DNA of 33,482 nt from contig JADFXY010000005.1 of assembly GCA_015233355.1 (NCBI GenBank), positions 1 to 33,482 on the forward strand, read 5' to 3'. Shown piece after piece: positions 1,674 to 10,778 of this stretch. The notes beneath the pieces were generated by a model. The model made no database searches. It saw only the letters and a program-made list of their open reading frames with translations, and was not told the origin of the DNA. Source of the stretch: Deltaproteobacteria bacterium. GTDB lineage: Bacteria > Desulfobacterota > JADFXK01. Numbering within the stretch: the first letter of the stretch is position 1; every line of letters begins with the position of its first letter. The translations under genes and the position numbers were made by a program.

Positions 1674-1864
1674 TACATTCCTTTGGTCACCGGCCTGAAC
1701 GCGGCGTAAAGAAATGAAAAAATGGTATTGTCGGAATAGGTCCGGCCAAAAACAAAGAGATACTCAGGTTGCAGCCGGCCCTCCGATATAACAAACGGAA
1801 TCCCTCCGCTTAACCGGCCCGGCCTGACCTGGTCCATCCGACCATACCTTAATTGAGTGGCGCC

Positions 1865-2773
1865 ATGTTCCGCACAAATGACTTAATACTTTTGCTGGTG
1901 GTTTTTTCTTCTATGGCCGTGGGAATTTTGTGGCCTCGATTCGGATTGTGGTTTCAGGCGCTACCTGTTTACATGGTCATGTGCCTGCTGTTCTTGAGTT
2001 ACCTGTCCATCACCCCGGAAGACCTCTGGGATACGCTCAAGATTTCGACCAAGACCATCTTTTACCTCACGTTATTGAAGATGGTGGCCTTACCGGTGGG
2101 GATATATTTCCTCTTCCGGGTCGTGTTGCCGGATTACGCCATGGCCGCCCTACTCCTCACCGGGGTCTCGACGGGGGTGGTGGCGCCGTTCATCTCCTCC
2201 CTGGTCAAGGCGAATACACCCTTGGTCCTGGTCATGGTCATCATCACCTCACCCCTGACGCCCTTGACTCTCCCCTGCCTGGTCAAGCTCGTATCCAGCC
2301 AATCTATTCAGATTCCCTTCGCCGACATGATCAAGATGCTGGGGCTGGTTATATTCATCCCCATTATGGCCGTTGAGGTTCTGAGACGGGTCGCCCCGGT
2401 TATTCCAGCCAAAATTATCCGGCGACGTTATCCAGTGTCGTTGGCTATTTTCGCCGTGATCAATTTCGGCGTTTTTTCCAGGTATTCGGATTTCCTGCTG
2501 CGACACCCAGCCACCCTGCTCACCGCCACGCTGGTGGGTCTGGCCTTGGCCGGGCTGTACATCGTGGCCGTTATCCCATTTTTCGGGAACCTGCCGGTGG
2601 CCGACCAGTTAGCCGCAGTGATCAGCTTTGGAAATATGAATAACGTCTTGGTCATTGTCTTCGCGGCCAAGTTCTTCGGCCCGCTCGAACCAACCGTGGC
2701 GGCCATGTACCTGATACCTTTTTTTGGTCTCATCCTCCCCCTGCGGGCATACCGAAAATGGCGGTCGGATTAG
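1865..2773 (+). CDS. Bile acid:sodium symporter (BASS/SBF) family transporter
   Basis: About 300 aa, ~9-10 hydrophobic segments, BASS-like segments (LLKMVALP, GVSTGVVAP, SFGNMNN). Start taken at ATG 1865. Confidence 0.8.
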   Translation: MFRTNDLILLLVVFSSMAVGILWPRFGLWFQALPVYMVMCLLFLSYLSITPEDLWDTLKISTKTIFYLTLLKMVALPVGIYFLFRVVLPDYAMAALLLTGVSTGVVAPFISSLVKANTPLVLVMVIITSPLTPLTLPCLVKLVSSQSIQIPFADMIKMLGLVIFIPIMAVEVLRRVAPVIPAKIIRRRYPVSLAIFAVINFGVFSRYSDFLLRHPATLLTATLVGLALAGLYIVAVIPFFGNLPVADQLAAVISFGNMNNVLVIVFAAKFFGPLEPTVAAMYLIPFFGLILPLRAYRKWRSD

Positions 2774-2814
2774 CCGCCTCAGTTGGAGATACGGCAGGCA
2801 GGATTCAAGAGACT

Positions 2815-3582
2815 TCACTCGTCGGCCGGAGACTCCGGCTCTACCGCGGCCACATCTTTATAAACTCCCAGTGGGAAGTAGGGGATCATTTCGTCGATCA
2901 CGCGCTGATTAGCCCGGATGGAGTCCATCTTCCAGTTGGTCGGGCAGGAAGATAGGAACTCGACGAAGGCAAATCCTCGCCCCTCCATTTGATATTGGAA
3001 GGCTGTTTTAAGCACCTTTTTGGCCTTCATCAGGTGTTTCGGGGTACACACGGCGACCCGGGCGGCATAGGCGGTGCCCCCCAAGGTGGCCAGGATCTCA
3101 GTCATCTTGATGGGGTATCCGGCGGTGGCCACTTCCCGGCCAAAGGGCGTGGTGGTGGTGACCTGTCCCGGCATGGTGGTCGGCGCCATTTGGCCGCCGG
3201 TCATACCAAATACGGTATTGTTTACAAATATGACCGTCACGTTTTCGCCCCGGTTGGCACAGTGGATGATTTCCGCGGTGCCGATGGCCGCCAGATCTCC
3301 GTCGCCTTGATAGGTGAACACAAAATTATCCGGCCGAGAGCGTTTCACGCCCGTGGCCACTGCGGCGGCCCGTCCATGGGGCGACTCCAGAACATCAACG
3401 TCAAAGTAGTCGTACATGAACACTGAACAGCCCACCGAGGCCACCCCGATCGTCTTGTCCCGGAGACCAAACTGATCAATCTGCTCGGCCACCAGCCGAT
3501 GAATAATTCCATGATGGCATCCGGGACAGAAATGAGCCGGTACGTCGATAAGACTCTCTGGTCTTTTGAATACTTGTTTCAT
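2815..3582 (-). CDS. 2-oxoacid:ferredoxin oxidoreductase beta subunit (TPP-binding, Vor/Kor-like)
   Basis: [21 protein letters not shown] motif [23 protein letters not shown]. Confidence 0.95.
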
Positions 3583-3639
3583 AACTGATCCGTCCGATTA
3601 TATAAAATGTGTGCCGGCCGTTTTGTTTCATCTGGATCT

Positions 3640-4701
3640 TCAACAGCCGATTAATTTTTCATAGGCCTTCTTGATCTCACTGAGCAGCTCATTGGGAGAA
3701 GGGATGGAACCCGGAGGCCGGCCATAGAACTCCACCTTGGTGGGGTCATTAACCGAAAGTCTGACATCCTCGACCATTTGGCCGGTACTCAGCTCCACCA
3801 CCAAGCAACTGGGAATTCTCTCAGATATCCGGCGCAGAGCCGCCTCGGGAAATGGATATAAAGTTATGGGGCGGAAGAGGCCGACCTGCATCTTATCCGC
3901 TCGGGCCATCTTGACTGATGTCTTGAGAATCCGGGCCACCGAACCGAAAGCCGTGACGACCATCTTGGCGTCATCCAACAAAAACTCTTCAAACATCACG
4001 TCTTTTTTCATTGACTGATATTTTTGATGCAGCTTCCAGTTGTGTTCGGTCAGTTCACCTTCAGAAAGATAAAGGCTCTTAATTAGTCTCGGCCGGCGGC
4101 CGGCGCACCCGGTCAGGATCCAGTCTCGATCATAATCCTTTCCCTGGTATGGATGCAAGACCACCGGCTCCTTGATCTGGCCCAACATGGCATCACCTAA
4201 GATGAGCACCGGGTTGCGATATTCATCAGCCAGATCAAAAGCCTTCATGGTCAGGTCATAATTCTCCTGGGCAGTGGATGGAGCTAAGACGATAGTCCGG
4301 TAGTCACCGTGGCCGCCGCCTCGGGTGGCCTGGAAGTAGTCTCCTTGTGACGGTGAAATGCCGCCCAAACCAGGTCCGCTCCGGCTCATATTGACGATCA
4401 CCCCCGGAATCTGGCTCCCGGCCATGTATGAAATGCCTTCCTGTTTCAGCGAAATACCCGGACTCGAGGAGGAAGTCATGGCCCTGGCCCCGGTCGCTCC
4501 GGCGCCCAGCAACATGTTTATAGAGGCTATCTCACTCTCGGCCTGAATGAATGTACCCCCGATGCCGGGCAGGTGGGCGGACATGTATTCGGGGATTTCG
4601 TTTTGAGGCGTGATAGGGTAGCCAAAATAGAAACGGCACCCCGCCTCAATGGCCCCCATGGCAATCGCTTCATTACCTTTGACAAACTTTCTATCTGGCA
4701 C
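3640..4701 (-). CDS. vorB: 2-oxoacid:ferredoxin oxidoreductase alpha subunit (VorB-type)
   Basis: KGNEAIAMGAIEAGC, GYPITPQ, QAESEIA, TSSSSPG, RSGPGLG, GGGHGDY; GTG start. Confidence 0.93.
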   Translation of the reverse strand: MPDRKFVKGNEAIAMGAIEAGCRFYFGYPITPQNEIPEYMSAHLPGIGGTFIQAESEIASINMLLGAGATGARAMTSSSSPGISLKQEGISYMAGSQIPGVIVNMSRSGPGLGGISPSQGDYFQATRGGGHGDYRTIVLAPSTAQENYDLTMKAFDLADEYRNPVLILGDAMLGQIKEPVVLHPYQGKDYDRDWILTGCAGRRPRLIKSLYLSEGELTEHNWKLHQKYQSMKKDVMFEEFLLDDAKMVVTAFGSVARILKTSVKMARADKMQVGLFRPITLYPFPEAALRRISERIPSCLVVELSTGQMVEDVRLSVNDPTKVEFYGRPPGSIPSPNELLSEIKKAYEKLIGC

Positions 4702-4730
4702 TGTTGTCTCCTGATAGCTGGAACAATTTG

Positions 4731-4796
4731 GGGTTTCGGGTTACGGGTTTCGAGTTGCGGGTCAATGACATTGACACGTAACCCGCAACACGCAAC
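4731..4796. repeat. Degenerate 7-mer array forming an inverted repeat around a 15-bp palindrome
   Basis: gggttt cgggtta cgggttt cgagttg cgg-GTCAATGACATTGAC-acg taacccg caacacg caac. Confidence 0.8.
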
Positions 4797-4807
4797 AATA
4801 GGAAAAA

Positions 4808-5932
4808 TCACTGCTCCAGGTATTTATAGATGGTGTCTTTCCATTCAGTTTCCTGAGTTCTATTTAAGATGGCGCGGTTAATATTCTCTCGCAGGGGGCT
4901 GCCATCAGGCAAAGCAAAACCGTATGCCCAGTGGTCAAAGGAATTTGGTAACACCTTCAATTTGCCCCGATAGGAATTCTTTATCCAATAGGCCAGAGAC
5001 GGCAAATCATAAACAAAAGCTTCAATCTTACCTTCAGCCAGGTCTTGCAGGCCATGGATCGTTTTCTGGTAAGATCTAAATGGAATACGGTTGGCAGTCA
5101 GATAAGTTGTCCCGGCGGAGTCAATAACCGTCCCGACCCGGAGTCTGGGCAGATCCTCCGGCCCTTGAACCGGCGGGAGCAGATGGGTTATGGTCAGGGC
5201 CGAGGTCATGGCGGCGGTGAAACCAGTCAAAATAATGATAGACACATACATCCAGATGACGGCTATAATCCGGCCCCCGGTGGTAATCGGCACCTTGTCC
5301 CCATACCCGACCGACGTCATCGTGGTCGCCGACCACCAGAGACCGGCCCCGATCCCCTTAGTCAAACTACCGCCAAAATGTTCGTAGTTCTTCCGGCGTT
5401 CAAACAACCAAACGATCATCCCCACCAGCAATAACAATAGGATTAAGACGGCCACGACGCTAAGGAACTTAACGGAGAAGAGGCGTTTCATGGCCGTAAT
5501 CCAGATGCCCTTTTGAGCTTCGTCCACCCCGATGGCCAGTCCCGTGGTATAAAATGAATGGGTGAAATCAAAGAGCTTTTCCCGTTCCGGAGTCATCCGG
5601 ATAGGAGCCACGATCACATCGACGCCACCTTGAACGATCTCCGCCAATAGGGTATGAATATCACTTTCATGCCATTCATACTTGATCTTCAAATCTGAGG
5701 CGACCCTGACCCACAAATCCACAGCAATGCCCACCCACCGGCCTTTCTCGTCTTTCATGGAGAACGGTGGCAGTTCGGCCACTCCGACCTTTAATATCCG
5801 ATCCGGCGATGGATTACCGTCGGCTTCCGTCCTGAGCGGGCTTAGACATACCACCAGGGCCAAGACGATGATCAGGTTTAGGCGGCCAGGTCGAAGACAC
5901 CCGAAAAAGGATGATAGATGGGCACGAACCAT
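4808..5932 (-). CDS. Prokaryotic ionotropic glutamate receptor-like (GluR0-type) ligand-gated K+ channel
   Basis: Signal peptide, S1 (LKVGVAELPPF, MTPEREKLFDFTHSF), M1, pore loop GLWWSATTMTSVGYGD (filter 5297-5317), M2 with GFTAAMTSALT, S2 (VGTVIDSAG, AFVYDLP, YGFALPDGSPLRENINRAIL). Confidence 0.9.
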   Translation of the reverse strand: MVRAHLSSFFGCLRPGRLNLIIVLALVVCLSPLRTEADGNPSPDRILKVGVAELPPFSMKDEKGRWVGIAVDLWVRVASDLKIKYEWHESDIHTLLAEIVQGGVDVIVAPIRMTPEREKLFDFTHSFYTTGLAIGVDEAQKGIWITAMKRLFSVKFLSVVAVLILLLLLVGMIVWLFERRKNYEHFGGSLTKGIGAGLWWSATTMTSVGYGDKVPITTGGRIIAVIWMYVSIIILTGFTAAMTSALTITHLLPPVQGPEDLPRLRVGTVIDSAGTTYLTANRIPFRSYQKTIHGLQDLAEGKIEAFVYDLPSLAYWIKNSYRGKLKVLPNSFDHWAYGFALPDGSPLRENINRAILNRTQETEWKDTIYKYLEQ

Positions 5933-6057
5933 AACACCGAATCCCCGGTCATACCGATAAAAAGCTCGTTAATCCGTCAAAGAATATTTGTCGAGTCGTT
6001 ATATATCCGTTGACCTTGGGGCAGCCAACCGGCTGGGTGGCTCGACCAGACCGAATG

Positions 6058-6270
6058 TCAGTCTTTAAAGACCTCAATAACTACATCAGGACACATTTCG
6101 GCGCACATGGCGCAACCGGTACATCCGTCTGAAGACCGGACATGGGCCACGTTGTAGCCCTGGTTGTTCAATCTGCCTGAGAGCTCAATCATTTTTTTAG
6201 GGCAAGCCATGATGCACAGGCTGCATCCCTTACATCTATCTTCCCGAAAAAGCACTTTACCTTTGGCCAT
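6058..6270 (-). CDS. 2[4Fe-4S] ferredoxin, oxidoreductase delta subunit
   Basis: CKGCSLCIMACP and CTGCAMCAEMCP. Start at ATG 6270 (MAKGKV), 70 aa. Confidence 0.93.
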   Translation of the reverse strand: MAKGKVLFREDRCKGCSLCIMACPKKMIELSGRLNNQGYNVAHVRSSDGCTGCAMCAEMCPDVVIEVFKD

Positions 6271-6567
6271 ATAATCACCATGACAAATCGGCGGGCCGGA
6301 TTGCACAGGCCGCCAATCCAAATAAACCCACAGTTGTTGTTAGAAGATCCGCTATTTCGTCAGAGCATTCCGAAGGGATCTGACTGAATCGTACACAAAG
6401 CCCAAGTGATGGGCCGTCCAAATCAAAACCAGATGACGATATCCTGTTAGCTCCCCGATCGGCTTAGGTCTGAACTTAAGCATCAAACGATAAAAGAAAA
6501 CTATTTTCATGATATGCCAGACCCGGCAGGGCCTAAGATCATACCTTTCGTCCATTGGTCCCATGAT

Positions 6568-9500
6568 TCAACCCTTATGTCGGCAAATATCAATGAAGTA
6601 AAGAAGTTTCTTCCACAATCCCTCTCCATCGAGCTGAGACATACTGTAATGCCAACCAATTTGTTTTAACTTGGTATACGTTGTCGATCGCGATTGCATC
6701 CGGCGTGCGGTCAACTCCTTTAGATCCATAAAGTGGTCGCTGCCCCAGTCATCGGAGTGGACTAGATTGGAGAAATGCTTGACCTCCGCGCTGGTCGGGT
6801 AGACGACGGCCCTTTCGATCAAGGTCATGATGAAAGGTTTAATCTCCCGGCAGGAATAGTTCGTTAGCTGGATAGCCCGGACAAACTCGTCGCAAAAGTC
6901 CAAGATACCGTTTTGAAGCTTTAAAATCGTCGGATTAAATTCAATTTCCGCCTGGCGGTCGGGACTATCATCGCCCTTCAAGACAGGCTGGACTTGGCCA
7001 TTATAATCATAATAATAATTAATGGTTGTGGCATGGGTGGCGCGAGCAGCTTCTTCAAATATTTCCACAAAATTCATCATGGCCCGTTCCGAGGCGAGCT
7101 TTCGGCGTGCATCGTACATCACGCCCTCGATGTAGCTACGAGGGGGGAATTGGTATGGTATGCCATCACAATACCCCATGTAACATCCATAAAGCGTAGG
7201 AAAATCATTCCGTTCTGAAAAAGATTCGCCGAGAAAGTATTGGATCGTGGCGTTCCAACCGACATCAACTAAGCCCACACAATCATGCGAGAAAAAACCG
7301 TGTTGAGAGAGATAATCCTGTAAGATGTCAAATCCGGGTTGACTTAAGTCCTTTATTTTGGCCTGGACGTGGTCGTCGGCGATAAAGGTTAAGAGTCTCG
7401 GATCATGCCAATTATGGATCGGTTCGGCTATATTGTCAAATCCGGCCCGGCGGGCTGAGTCTTCAAATTCTTCCGGGGGCAGGCCGAAGGCTTTGAGAAC
7501 GGAATAGACACCTTTTTGGCGAGGATTGTAAAAGGCCGTCATGGCTTTAAGATGGCTGAGCCCTTTGTTAACCGCGGCGGGGGACGTTGTCATTCGGGTC
7601 AGATACAGATATTCATCTTCCGGGTATTGTCCTTCCCGGCCGAGCAGCGATATCATCTTCCGGTAAAGGCTCTGCAGCAAATACCCATCTCGGGCCAAAA
7701 AGAATATCCTCTTTGCTTTAGCTCCGGCTAAGGTATCCAATATCCCAAATATATACGTACAAAACACCGGCCCCAGGACGTCATAACCGTATCTATAATA
7801 AAAATCACTTTCCGTGTTTTCCCGGAACAGGCTGCCGGCATGGGCCACCTGCAACAGATGTCGACCTTTCCAATAATCAGTTTGTCTGGATAAATAGGAA
7901 TAGGCCCGAAGCAGACGAAGGCGTTTCTTCTCGGTCTTATTCTTGAAAAGAACAGCCCGGATAGCCATCGCAGACGGTACGTCATGATCGGCGATGGGAT
8001 TGTCGCCGACATGGACGACCTGCTTTGGAGACACGCCGTAATCACTCATCATCAGAGAAAACAACCGGCCTGAGTACTTGCACAAAAACTTCTCGCTCGA
8101 CATATAAATCCGGTCGAAATACTTTAGCAAGTCCATTTTTTCAAGAATATAAGATATATCATCTGATTCTAGATACATATCGGATAGAGCCACGATTGGT
8201 TTTCCAAATCCCTTGACCATATCCAGGAGTCGCCGCGCCTCCGGGTCCACCATCAAGGCATTCACCTCCAACTCCAATTCCCGCTCCCTAATCCAATTCT
8301 TGAGCCCCGGATCGATCTGTTGCGTCCCGAACATCTCCTGAATCCACCGATCAAGAATTTCCGAGTACCGGCATTCATAATCGAAACCCGCCGCTTGCGC
8401 CTCCTCGCGAAGGTCCGTCACCGCCTGGATACGGCATGCCAGGATGTCTTCCCATAAGATAACGTTGTTAATCCGGTCGGAGAGATGCCGGCACAGCGCT
8501 TGATGGACCTGCTCGGGTGGCTCAATTCGGCGGACGAGGAGAGTGTCAAACAAGTCGAAAGAAAAAACCGATACCTTATCATTCAAGGCACTAAGCAACT
8601 CGTTCAATTTATTGAAGGTATCTATGCGGTCTAGTAATCGTAGGCCAACAGTCTTAGTGAATGCTATGGGGTGTAGGGCAGCTTTTCCCAACCGATAGCT
8701 GAAGGAAGCGGTCAGTCGGGCCATTTCCCGGCGAGCCGAGGCAAGCTGATTAACATAATGATTTATTTTTTTATTTCTGTCTGCAAAAAGATTGGCGTTT
8801 TCACGCTCTTTCTGCTCCAGACGGGTTTGTATTAGAGAGAGGTTCTTATCGTATTCAAGAGCAAGCTCACGGATAGCCGCTTCCTGTTGAACAGCGATCG
8901 CATCTATTTCCTTTCGATGTGAATCAACCGTTTCCTGTTGCATCTCCTGATGTGAGTTCACCGTATCCTGAAGCATGTTGTGAAATGATATGGTCATTTC
9001 TTCTTCTATGTGGTGATGCACCTTGGTCATCTGCCGGCTAAGGGAAAAAAAGATGTCCCGTGTGGCACTATCCAGGAAATTTGGAAATTCTTTCAACAAG
9101 ACATCAAAGTTTTCCTGGTTTGCTTTGAGAGGATTTTCCTTGATAGAGTTGGAGCCGTGTAACCGGTAGTGCAACAGCTTTTGGTCATGCAAGAACAAAA
9201 TACCGTCTCGGTTCGCCGAAAGAAAACGCAAGATAAAATCATAGTCCAGCAGGTACTTATAACTACCAAAGTATCCTATTCCATCATAAACGCTTCTCTT
9301 AAGAAAAAAATTAGAGGTGGTGATAAGAAAGTTGCCCTGTAAAATGGCCTGCAAAAAATCCCCGGTATCGTAATAAATTTGTTTTAACCCTTCATACCAT
9401 TCCAGCCACCAGTGCGTCTTGTCGGTAATGGGCCGGCTGTCGGCATCGACCAGCTCAATATCCGTGGCCAAAAACTCCTTACCGCCAGTCCCGGCCGCCT

Positions 9501-9822
9501 CGACGAGAATCTCCAACCGCCGCGGATCATAATAATCATCAGAATTGATGATGGTCACATAATTTGATTGGACCATCCGGATACCGTTGTTTATGGTCTC
9601 TGACGACCCCAGGTTCTTGTCTTGCCTAAAAAACTTGACCCTGCGATCAGTTAGGTACGGTCTGATCACCTCCACGGAATTATCGGTCGAGGCATCATCT
9701 AAAATAATAAGCTCTAAATCTTCGTAAGTCTGATTAAGGACGCTTTCAATAGCTTGCGCTACATATTGCTCGTGATTGTACACCGGCATAATCACACTGA
9801 CGGCTGATTGTTCCACATCCAT
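6568..9822 (-). CDS. Multidomain glycan enzyme: GT2 + coiled coil + HAD phosphatase + PRTase-like domain (probable ribofuranosyltransferase module)
   Basis: GT2 (SVIMPVYN, LDDASTD, NSDD); coiled coil ~aa 270-370; HAD motifs FDLFDTL, LSDMY, K, HVGDN..D; then FLARDG and VDVGWNATIQ. Confidence 0.85.
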   Translation of the reverse strand: MDVEQSAVSVIMPVYNHEQYVAQAIESVLNQTYEDLELIILDDASTDNSVEVIRPYLTDRRVKFFRQDKNLGSSETINNGIRMVQSNYVTIINSDDYYDPRRLEILVEAAGTGGKEFLATDIELVDADSRPITDKTHWWLEWYEGLKQIYYDTGDFLQAILQGNFLITTSNFFLKRSVYDGIGYFGSYKYLLDYDFILRFLSANRDGILFLHDQKLLHYRLHGSNSIKENPLKANQENFDVLLKEFPNFLDSATRDIFFSLSRQMTKVHHHIEEEMTISFHNMLQDTVNSHQEMQQETVDSHRKEIDAIAVQQEAAIRELALEYDKNLSLIQTRLEQKERENANLFADRNKKINHYVNQLASARREMARLTASFSYRLGKAALHPIAFTKTVGLRLLDRIDTFNKLNELLSALNDKVSVFSFDLFDTLLVRRIEPPEQVHQALCRHLSDRINNVILWEDILACRIQAVTDLREEAQAAGFDYECRYSEILDRWIQEMFGTQQIDPGLKNWIRERELELEVNALMVDPEARRLLDMVKGFGKPIVALSDMYLESDDISYILEKMDLLKYFDRIYMSSEKFLCKYSGRLFSLMMSDYGVSPKQVVHVGDNPIADHDVPSAMAIRAVLFKNKTEKKRLRLLRAYSYLSRQTDYWKGRHLLQVAHAGSLFRENTESDFYYRYGYDVLGPVFCTYIFGILDTLAGAKAKRIFFLARDGYLLQSLYRKMISLLGREGQYPEDEYLYLTRMTTSPAAVNKGLSHLKAMTAFYNPRQKGVYSVLKAFGLPPEEFEDSARRAGFDNIAEPIHNWHDPRLLTFIADDHVQAKIKDLSQPGFDILQDYLSQHGFFSHDCVGLVDVGWNATIQYFLGESFSERNDFPTLYGCYMGYCDGIPYQFPPRSYIEGVMYDARRKLASERAMMNFVEIFEEAARATHATTINYYYDYNGQVQPVLKGDDSPDRQAEIEFNPTILKLQNGILDFCDEFVRAIQLTNYSCREIKPFIMTLIERAVVYPTSAEVKHFSNLVHSDDWGSDHFMDLKELTARRMQSRSTTYTKLKQIGWHYSMSQLDGEGLWKKLLYFIDICRHKG

Positions 9823-10778
9823 TAACTATCTCCTAAGAACATCCCGTATAGTCTGGATATCCTATTTTTGACTCTTTCCAACATGAAGGGGAACGGCAGG
9901 CCACGGAGCGCCCATGTTTCGTTGATTCGCCCAATTGCTGCCTTTATCCGAGTCAAAAGGTCAACATCGGGTTGGGCGGTGGTTGGTGATATGTCAGCCT
10001 TATCCGGCATCATATCATGGAATTCTTCCCACAAGAATTGTCTGAAAACCGGAACCGCTTCCGGCCGGATCTGATCCCACCATCGATATAAAAGTTCTTG
10101 TTCCGTCTTCTCCAGGAGTTCTGGTGGAAACCTATGCCCAGAAACGGTAGAATTACCGAATGATCTGTAATAGGCGGTGACCTTGGGCACGTAACAAAAA
10201 TTTACCAGCCTGGATAGCTTGACCAGATACTCCCAGTCTTCAAATACGACCAGGGTTTCATCCAATAAACCGACCTCGGCCGCAAGGGACGATTTCCACA
10301 ATATGCCGATAAATGGTATATAATTTTGCAGCAGTAAAAGCCGCCGGTCAAAAGGCCGACCAAACACCTTAACCCGGCCGGTCCTATCAACCCGGCCCTC
10401 AGCAGTCAAGGACAAGTGGATCACTTTGCCGTAGACCACTCCCACTGCCGGATCGCCGGTGGCCGCCATCAGCACCTGGATGGCCCCTCGATCAAGGATG
10501 TCATCGTCATCCAAAAAACCGATCCATTCACCGCTAGCCGTCCGAAGTCCGGTATTTGCGGCACCCGACCGACCTAGATTCCGCCCATGAACGGCGTATC
10601 TTATGTTTTCCAGGCCCCGGCCATACCTGCTTATTAAGTCTTCGACGTCACAGCCGCCATCATTAACCACCACCAGTTCTATCGGCCGATATGTCTGAGC
10701 GGCCACGCTCCGGACGGCTTCAATGAGCAATTCAGGACGGTCCTTCGTCCGAATAATAATCGACACCAGAGAATTCAT
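9822..10778 (-). CDS. Glycosyltransferase family 2
   Basis: SIIIRTKDR, VVNDGG, GFLDDDD, EDWEY. Stop overlaps next start (TAATG at 9822). Confidence 0.92.
   Translation of the reverse strand: MNSLVSIIIRTKDRPELLIEAVRSVAAQTYRPIELVVVNDGGCDVEDLISRYGRGLENIRYAVHGRNLGRSGAANTGLRTASGEWIGFLDDDDILDRGAIQVLMAATGDPAVGVVYGKVIHLSLTAEGRVDRTGRVKVFGRPFDRRLLLLQNYIPFIGILWKSSLAAEVGLLDETLVVFEDWEYLVKLSRLVNFCYVPKVTAYYRSFGNSTVSGHRFPPELLEKTEQELLYRWWDQIRPEAVPVFRQFLWEEFHDMMPDKADISPTTAQPDVDLLTRIKAAIGRINETWALRGLPFPFMLERVKNRISRLYGMFLGDS

Follow-up and report, generated by a model that had tools for sequence, protein, structure and literature searches.

Gene order at the oxidoreductase locus

The window analysed here is a stretch of 33,482 nt from a Deltaproteobacteria bacterium (contig JADFXY010000005.1 of assembly GCA_015233355.1), and corresponds to contig C555 of a fragmented metagenome-assembled genome (MAG; 633 contigs, 62% complete). 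Between positions 2815 and 6270 of its minus strand, a gene for a GluR0-type ligand-gated K+ channel stands between the delta and alpha subunit genes of a 2-oxoacid:ferredoxin oxidoreductase, and the beta subunit gene follows alpha. This order of delta-channel-alpha-beta on one strand, as well as the coordinates and gene calls, had been given by an earlier sequence-only reading of the window, and all were confirmed by the list of open reading frames (ORFs), Pfam and the sequence itself. All frames of the locus are intact, as evident from the ORF list.

The delta gene (6270-6058, minus strand) encodes a ferredoxin of 70 aa with two [4Fe-4S] clusters, as indicated by matches to the Fer4 families of Pfam and by two CxxCxxCxxxCP motifs in the sequence; an alternative TTG start is possible upstream, at 6321. 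A spacer of 125 nt (6057-5933) separates delta from the channel gene (5932-4808, minus strand), the product of which (P0001, 374 aa) matches Pfam SBP_bac_3 split by Lig_chan and Ion_trans_2, and also Lig_chan-Glu_bd. The spacer between channel and alpha (4807-4702, 106 nt) holds a hairpin at 4730-4797 that resembles repetitive extragenic palindromic (REP) elements, with arms of heptamer repeats around a palindrome at 4761-4775. The alpha gene (4701-3640, minus strand) encodes a VorB-type subunit of 353 aa with the POR_N and PFOR_II domains, and the beta gene (3582-2815, minus strand) a thiamine pyrophosphate (TPP)-binding subunit of 255 aa with a TPP_enzyme_C domain.

Alpha, beta and the delta subunit with its two clusters thus display the composition of a 2-oxoacid:ferredoxin oxidoreductase, although delta and alpha are not contiguous and lie 1.36 kb apart, with the channel gene within this distance. 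Alpha scores 539.6 bits with the NCBIfam model NF005507 (cut-off 399), and its closest solved chains are 1YD7/4WBX and 8YS5. Among the subfamily models for the oxidoreductase genes, that of alpha alone exceeds its cut-off.

Architecture and expected ligand of the channel

The channel displays an S1-M1-P-M2-S2 architecture, in which Lig_chan (162-262) and Ion_trans_2 (164-247) split the SBP_bac_3 match (residues 47-373). Its K+ filter, TSVGYGD (residues 206-212), carries the T-x-V-G-Y-G-D signature, and VGYGDK is invariant in an alignment of 22 sequences, i.e. the channel and 21 homologs. Both an amino-terminal domain (ATD) and an M4 helix are absent from the chain, which leads from a signal-like helix (15-30) into S1 and ends after the S2 helices (362-372). 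In the AlphaFold2 model (predicted local distance difference test score, pLDDT, 85.8), two alpha/beta lobes are separated by helices 154-178, 190-206 and 218-251. When this model was compared by Foldseek with the ligand-binding and transmembrane part of AMPA receptors, an E-value of 6e-23 and a template modelling (TM) score of up to 0.68 were obtained over about 370 columns. By sequence, the best receptor-type relative of solved structure is the GluR0 homolog of Nostoc punctiforme (2PYY), matched in both lobes with an E-value of 1.9e-22. The prokaryotic receptor family has neither an ATD nor M4 and is gated by amino acids, according to the available text of PMC11479355.

The residues expected at the ligand-binding site are also conserved. 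Across alignment A1 (22 sequences), R117 and D309 do not vary and T112 is conserved in at least 90% of the sequences, and the stretches around R117/T112 and D309 can be aligned with those of 2PYY and of glutamine-binding proteins. Beyond the consensus motif, the roles of R117, T112 and D309 in holding the ligand are taken by us to be those of their counterparts in GlnBP and GluA2. In the consensus motif itself, as given in the same available text (PMC11479355), Arg and Thr hold the alpha-carboxylate of the ligand and Asp or Glu its alpha-amino group. Because D309, the acidic residue for the alpha-amino group, is invariant, an amino acid is the expected ligand of the channel; a 2-oxoacid, which the sequence-only reading had proposed as an alternative, is unlikely.

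As judged from family membership, the two lobes (S1, about 46-137; S2, about 258-372) would form a periplasmic clamshell that binds an L-amino acid via Arg117, Thr112 and Asp309. Closure of the lobes would then open a tetrameric K+ pore made of M1, the pore helix, the TSVGYGD filter and M2. By analogy with the family, the best-supported role of the channel would be the opening of this K+ pore upon binding of an extracellular amino acid. For GluR0 of Synechocystis, links to the K+ upshock response and, in E. coli, to K+ uptake are described in the available part of PMC13099474.

The family is large, as 199 proteins were found at E<=1e-10 among 8000 candidates scored, in which the best match outside the genus is 52% identical; most homologs are annotated merely as substrate-binding proteins. 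The gene is present as a single copy in the genome. Its base composition (GC 0.516; GC at third codon positions, GC3, 0.608) is not anomalous and its codon use is likewise ordinary. A recent horizontal transfer of the channel gene was considered and rejected, since neither composition nor codon use stands out. The channel is a typical GluR0-type member of this large bacterial family.

Distribution, spacers and selection

The arrangement is not unique to this genome and is found in both other species of the genus. The congener MAG G001 displays the order delta-channel-alpha-beta, and the congener MAG G002 displays channel-alpha-beta-SBF on a contig that ends inside the channel gene; the two were separately assembled, with 91-98% nucleotide identity. 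Outside the genus, the nearest genomes in the collection are those ranked as 'same phylum', with none of intermediate rank. Channel homologs at E<=1e-40 occur in 21 of 400 genomes of the phylum, three of which are the genus itself.

For the wider comparison, 105 homolog loci outside the genus (18 of the same phylum, 7 on genome contigs and 80 on metagenome contigs; 31-50% identity) were probed by tblastn with alpha, beta and delta of the window and with a gamma. Flanks of at least 1 kb were available on both sides in 65 loci and on at least one side in 93. None of these 105 loci carries the channel within an oxidoreductase operon. An oxidoreductase gene of any kind lies nearby in one of them only, L140 (G322:C303, 2494-6234), where a 35%-identical channel homolog is convergent to an oxidoreductase of the fused gamma-alpha/beta type on the opposite strand. 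On a rough estimate, such a neighbourhood is about what chance gives, genomes having several such loci. Among the neighbours of the homologs, MscS-type channels (10 of 105 loci) are the most frequent, followed by two-component proteins (9 of 105), and catabolic enzymes are not among the commonest; neighbours were clustered by BLAST, and three members each of the MscS-type and two-component clusters were checked against Pfam. These neighbours are in line with the K+ upshock role of GluR0.

In the reverse comparison, the 19 best alpha orthologs of the phylum (59-74% identity) were fetched, and the channel was present in none of the 19 orthologous operons. Delta, alpha, beta and gamma are contiguous in 16 of them, with an apparent delta-alpha gap of less than 200 nt, so that the premise of the sequence-only reading, i.e. 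that delta, alpha and beta are normally contiguous, holds. The delta subunit of the window is 41-67% identical to those heading the orthologous operons, and the beta subunit 58-75% identical to the orthologs found directly after alpha in the relatives. One of the remaining three operons is cut by a contig end, and the other two, both from one family, have delta-alpha apart from beta-gamma. At these two loci, L112 (G013:C17) and L113 (G054:C6), orthologous delta-alpha genes stand without beta-gamma after them, and in L112 they are followed by a small ORF, an ArsR-type regulator and other genes; the orthologous operon was therefore broken up on more than one occasion. The search for synteny, which the sequence-only reading had called for, favours an insertion: the order recurs in the genus and is absent from both wider samples.

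A point overlooked in the sequence-only reading is the absence of gamma after beta. No gene matching PF01558 lies next to beta, and none of the seven PF01558 matches in this 62% complete genome is on this contig. Instead of gamma, a convergent gene for an SBF-family transporter (1853-2773, plus strand; Pfam SBF) follows beta, and the same is true of G002. A lone gamma gene (L006; C441:702-1256) lies away from alpha and beta, flanked by a hexapeptide-repeat gene on one side and by convergent Hpt and ABC-binding genes on the other. It shares 63% identity with the gamma of the closest orthologous operon as compared to 42% with that of the complete paralogous operon on C69. The gamma on C441, from this sequence comparison, is probably the displaced partner in trans of the enzyme of the window; its contig is short and the genome incomplete. 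At L016 (G001:C46, 7209-8545), the counterpart of 1828-3164 of the window, which spans the SBF gene and the 3' portion of beta, lies in reverse orientation. A stretch of 78 nt (window 3087-3164) is present there in two copies that face opposite ways, the second lying where the contig ends. Either the assembly is at fault here, or beta is cut by a true inversion.

The two spacers that flank the channel gene differ in their contents. In that before alpha, the hairpin (−29.3 kcal mol−1, z −2.11) is not followed by a U-tract. Its 15-nt palindrome has 31 exact copies in the genome, one of them in the window, and terminates a longer element in 30 of the 31. With up to three mismatches, 114 left and 95 right ends of the repeat were counted, forming 36 adjacent pairs, of which 17 measure 377-381 nt; an IS110-family transposase gene lies within one of the pairs. 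Examples of this dispersed repeat family in G000 are located at C6:9328-9706, C499:13636-13807 and C632:10688-12356. The spacer is 106 nt long here, about 460 nt in G001, where an element of this family of about 380 nt, resembling miniature inverted-repeat transposable elements (MITEs), is present, and about 250 nt in G002, where the arms at the hairpin site enclose another kind of insert, of about 130 nt. The centre between the heptamer arms varies among the three congeners, and the final 35 nt or so ahead of alpha, with the ribosome-binding site, are kept across them. The channel-alpha spacer appears to hold a hot spot of repeat elements.

The delta-channel spacer contains no sigma-70-like site on the minus strand and only a weak 5-bp stem (5949-5936), and its predicted fold is not unusual (z −1.57). 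No canonical promoter or terminator was found in either spacer; the scan returned 3 and 3 sites, compared to 3.8 and 4.5 expected from shuffled sequences, and these sites were uninformative. Rfam gave no match at E<=1 in the region 2600-6700. In two peat runs that contained 5-7% of the sampled words, contigs reach just parts of beta, alpha and delta (an RNA contig of 265 nt on 3330-3594 and a contig of 193 nt partly on 6200-6329) and none extends over the channel or the junctions.

Pairwise comparison with the congeners was used to monitor selection on the four genes. The dN/dS ratios against G001 and G002, respectively, are 0.13 and 0.09 (channel), 0.05 and 0.04 (alpha) and 0.00-0.11 and 0.03 (beta); delta, for which only G001 is available, has a ratio of 0.04. 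All four are therefore regarded as functional genes. The dS of the channel gene, 0.115 against G001 and 0.232 against G002, matches that of its neighbours (0.118 for alpha against G001), which places the insertion before the three species diverged. The sequence-only reading had also considered a recent neutral insertion: an insertion is indeed favoured, but it is neither recent nor unselected.

Upstream of delta on the minus strand lies an ORF of 70 aa (6352-6564), without a family match, which differs from its G001 counterpart by four non-synonymous changes and one synonymous change (dN/dS about 1.1) and may not be a real gene. It is preceded by a gene (6568-9822, minus strand) for a protein of 1084 aa, in which a family-2 glycosyltransferase domain is fused to a HAD-type hydrolase domain, and a second family-2 glycosyltransferase gene is adjacent to it at 9822-10778.

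Origin of the arrangement and comparison with known systems

Since the arrangement is limited to one genus and the operon is otherwise rearranged, the position of the channel gene is interpreted, with a probability of roughly 0.75, as a lineage-specific insertion of an ordinary GluR0-type gene into a reshuffled delta-alpha-beta-gamma operon. Channel and enzyme are each kept by selection, with nothing to indicate joint work. The operon would have been reshuffled in the ancestor of the genus, with gamma moving away and the channel gene entering between delta and alpha, ahead of what appears as a hot spot of repeats, and co-transcription, if it occurs, would follow from position alone. On present evidence, the locus mainly illustrates that a conserved operon of four enzyme genes can accept a gene of foreign origin, and have one of its subunit genes displaced to a different site, with all parts still under selection. 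It also cautions against inferring function from gene order within a single genus.

Several observations weigh against such an insertion. The order is kept in all three species of the genus, and channel, delta, alpha and beta are all under purifying selection. Conservation could be judged only over dS up to 0.3, as the collection lacks intermediate relatives. The delta-channel spacer is little diverged from that of G001 (122 matches, 3 mismatches and 1 gap in 126 columns, with a dS of 0.12-0.15 in the flanking genes), which gives a weak hint of constraint, drawn from one pair and small numbers; divergence of the spacer between the 70-aa ORF and delta is similarly low (3 differences in 81 positions). 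Finally, the spacers are short and have no canonical terminator or promoter, and a single transcript is therefore possible.

Several of these observations speak for a functional coupling, in which a co-transcribed channel would sense an external amino acid, for instance the precursor of the 2-oxoacid of the enzyme, and adjust K+ flux or membrane potential during its oxidation. Besides the conserved order, the selection on the channel and the low divergence of the delta-channel spacer, coupling is favoured by the shared strand with short spacers, by the lack of a U-tract terminator in either spacer, and by the gating of the family by amino acids (PMC11479355, available text). However, the arrangement does not recur beyond the genus, whether in the 19 orthologous operons or in the 105 homolog loci, and in the congeners the spacer ahead of alpha has accommodated inserts of about 130 to 380 nt. 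The loss of gamma in cis argues for reshuffling rather than design, and no substrate is assigned, only the alpha subfamily model being above its cut-off. Homologs elsewhere adjoin MscS channels and regulators, and the one physiological study found ties GluR0 to K+ upshock (PMC13099474, in the part available). Coupling is thus considered unlikely.

Less probable still is the specific form of this proposal, in which channel, delta, alpha and beta would make up one transcript and the channel would act as the external sensor of the cell for the very amino acid that corresponds to the 2-oxoacid substrate, so that K+ flux or membrane potential would be tied to amino-acid fermentation. If true, the sensor role would give an ionotropic receptor a metabolic function for which no bacterial example has been described. 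Coupling of any form would provide a rare physiological context for bacterial homologs of glutamate receptors, as the K+ upshock response is the sole role found in the literature searched (PMC13099474, available part). In that literature (titles and abstracts, supplements excluded), no report of a GluR0-type channel within an oxidoreductase operon was found. Gene context is not treated in a survey of prokaryotic receptors (PMC2950845), from which the words operon, neighbor, adjacent and genomic context are absent.

It could also be argued that the insertion broke the operon and that delta, alpha and beta are becoming pseudogenes, as gamma is missing in cis and delta lies 1.36 kb from alpha. 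Such decay is highly improbable in view of the intact frames, the candidate gamma ortholog in trans and the low dN/dS of delta (0.04, G001 only), alpha (0.04-0.05) and beta (0.00-0.11) over the three species. A wrong join of the channel to the oxidoreductase genes in the assembly, which the fragmentation of the MAG (633 contigs, 62% complete) and the inverted piece inside beta on the congener contig L016 might suggest, is hardly credible, since the same order is present in G001, and channel-alpha-beta-SBF in G002, in separate assemblies at 91-98% nucleotide identity.

An insertion, the preferred interpretation, leaves each component close to a known system. The channel resembles GluR0, the K+-selective prokaryotic glutamate receptor of Synechocystis sp. 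PCC 6803, and its Nostoc homolog in lacking an ATD and M4, in the S1-M1-P-M2-S2 order, in the K+ filter and in the conserved Arg and Asp. It differs in its low sequence identity to solved relatives and in the location of its gene inside an oxidoreductase operon, and its amino-acid ligand, K+ selectivity and physiological role are predicted. The hairpin ahead of alpha can be likened to the REPs of E. coli. With REP and MITE elements, it shares the form of a GC-rich intergenic hairpin, the many copies in the genome and the presence of one pair around an IS110-family transposase gene, whereas its arms of tandem heptamers and its species-variable centre are different. The enzyme displays the alpha, beta and delta domains expected of four-subunit 2-oxoacid:ferredoxin oxidoreductases with a VorB-type alpha, and its subunits are 41-75% identical to those of contiguous operons, from which the locus differs in having its gamma outside and a channel gene between delta and alpha.

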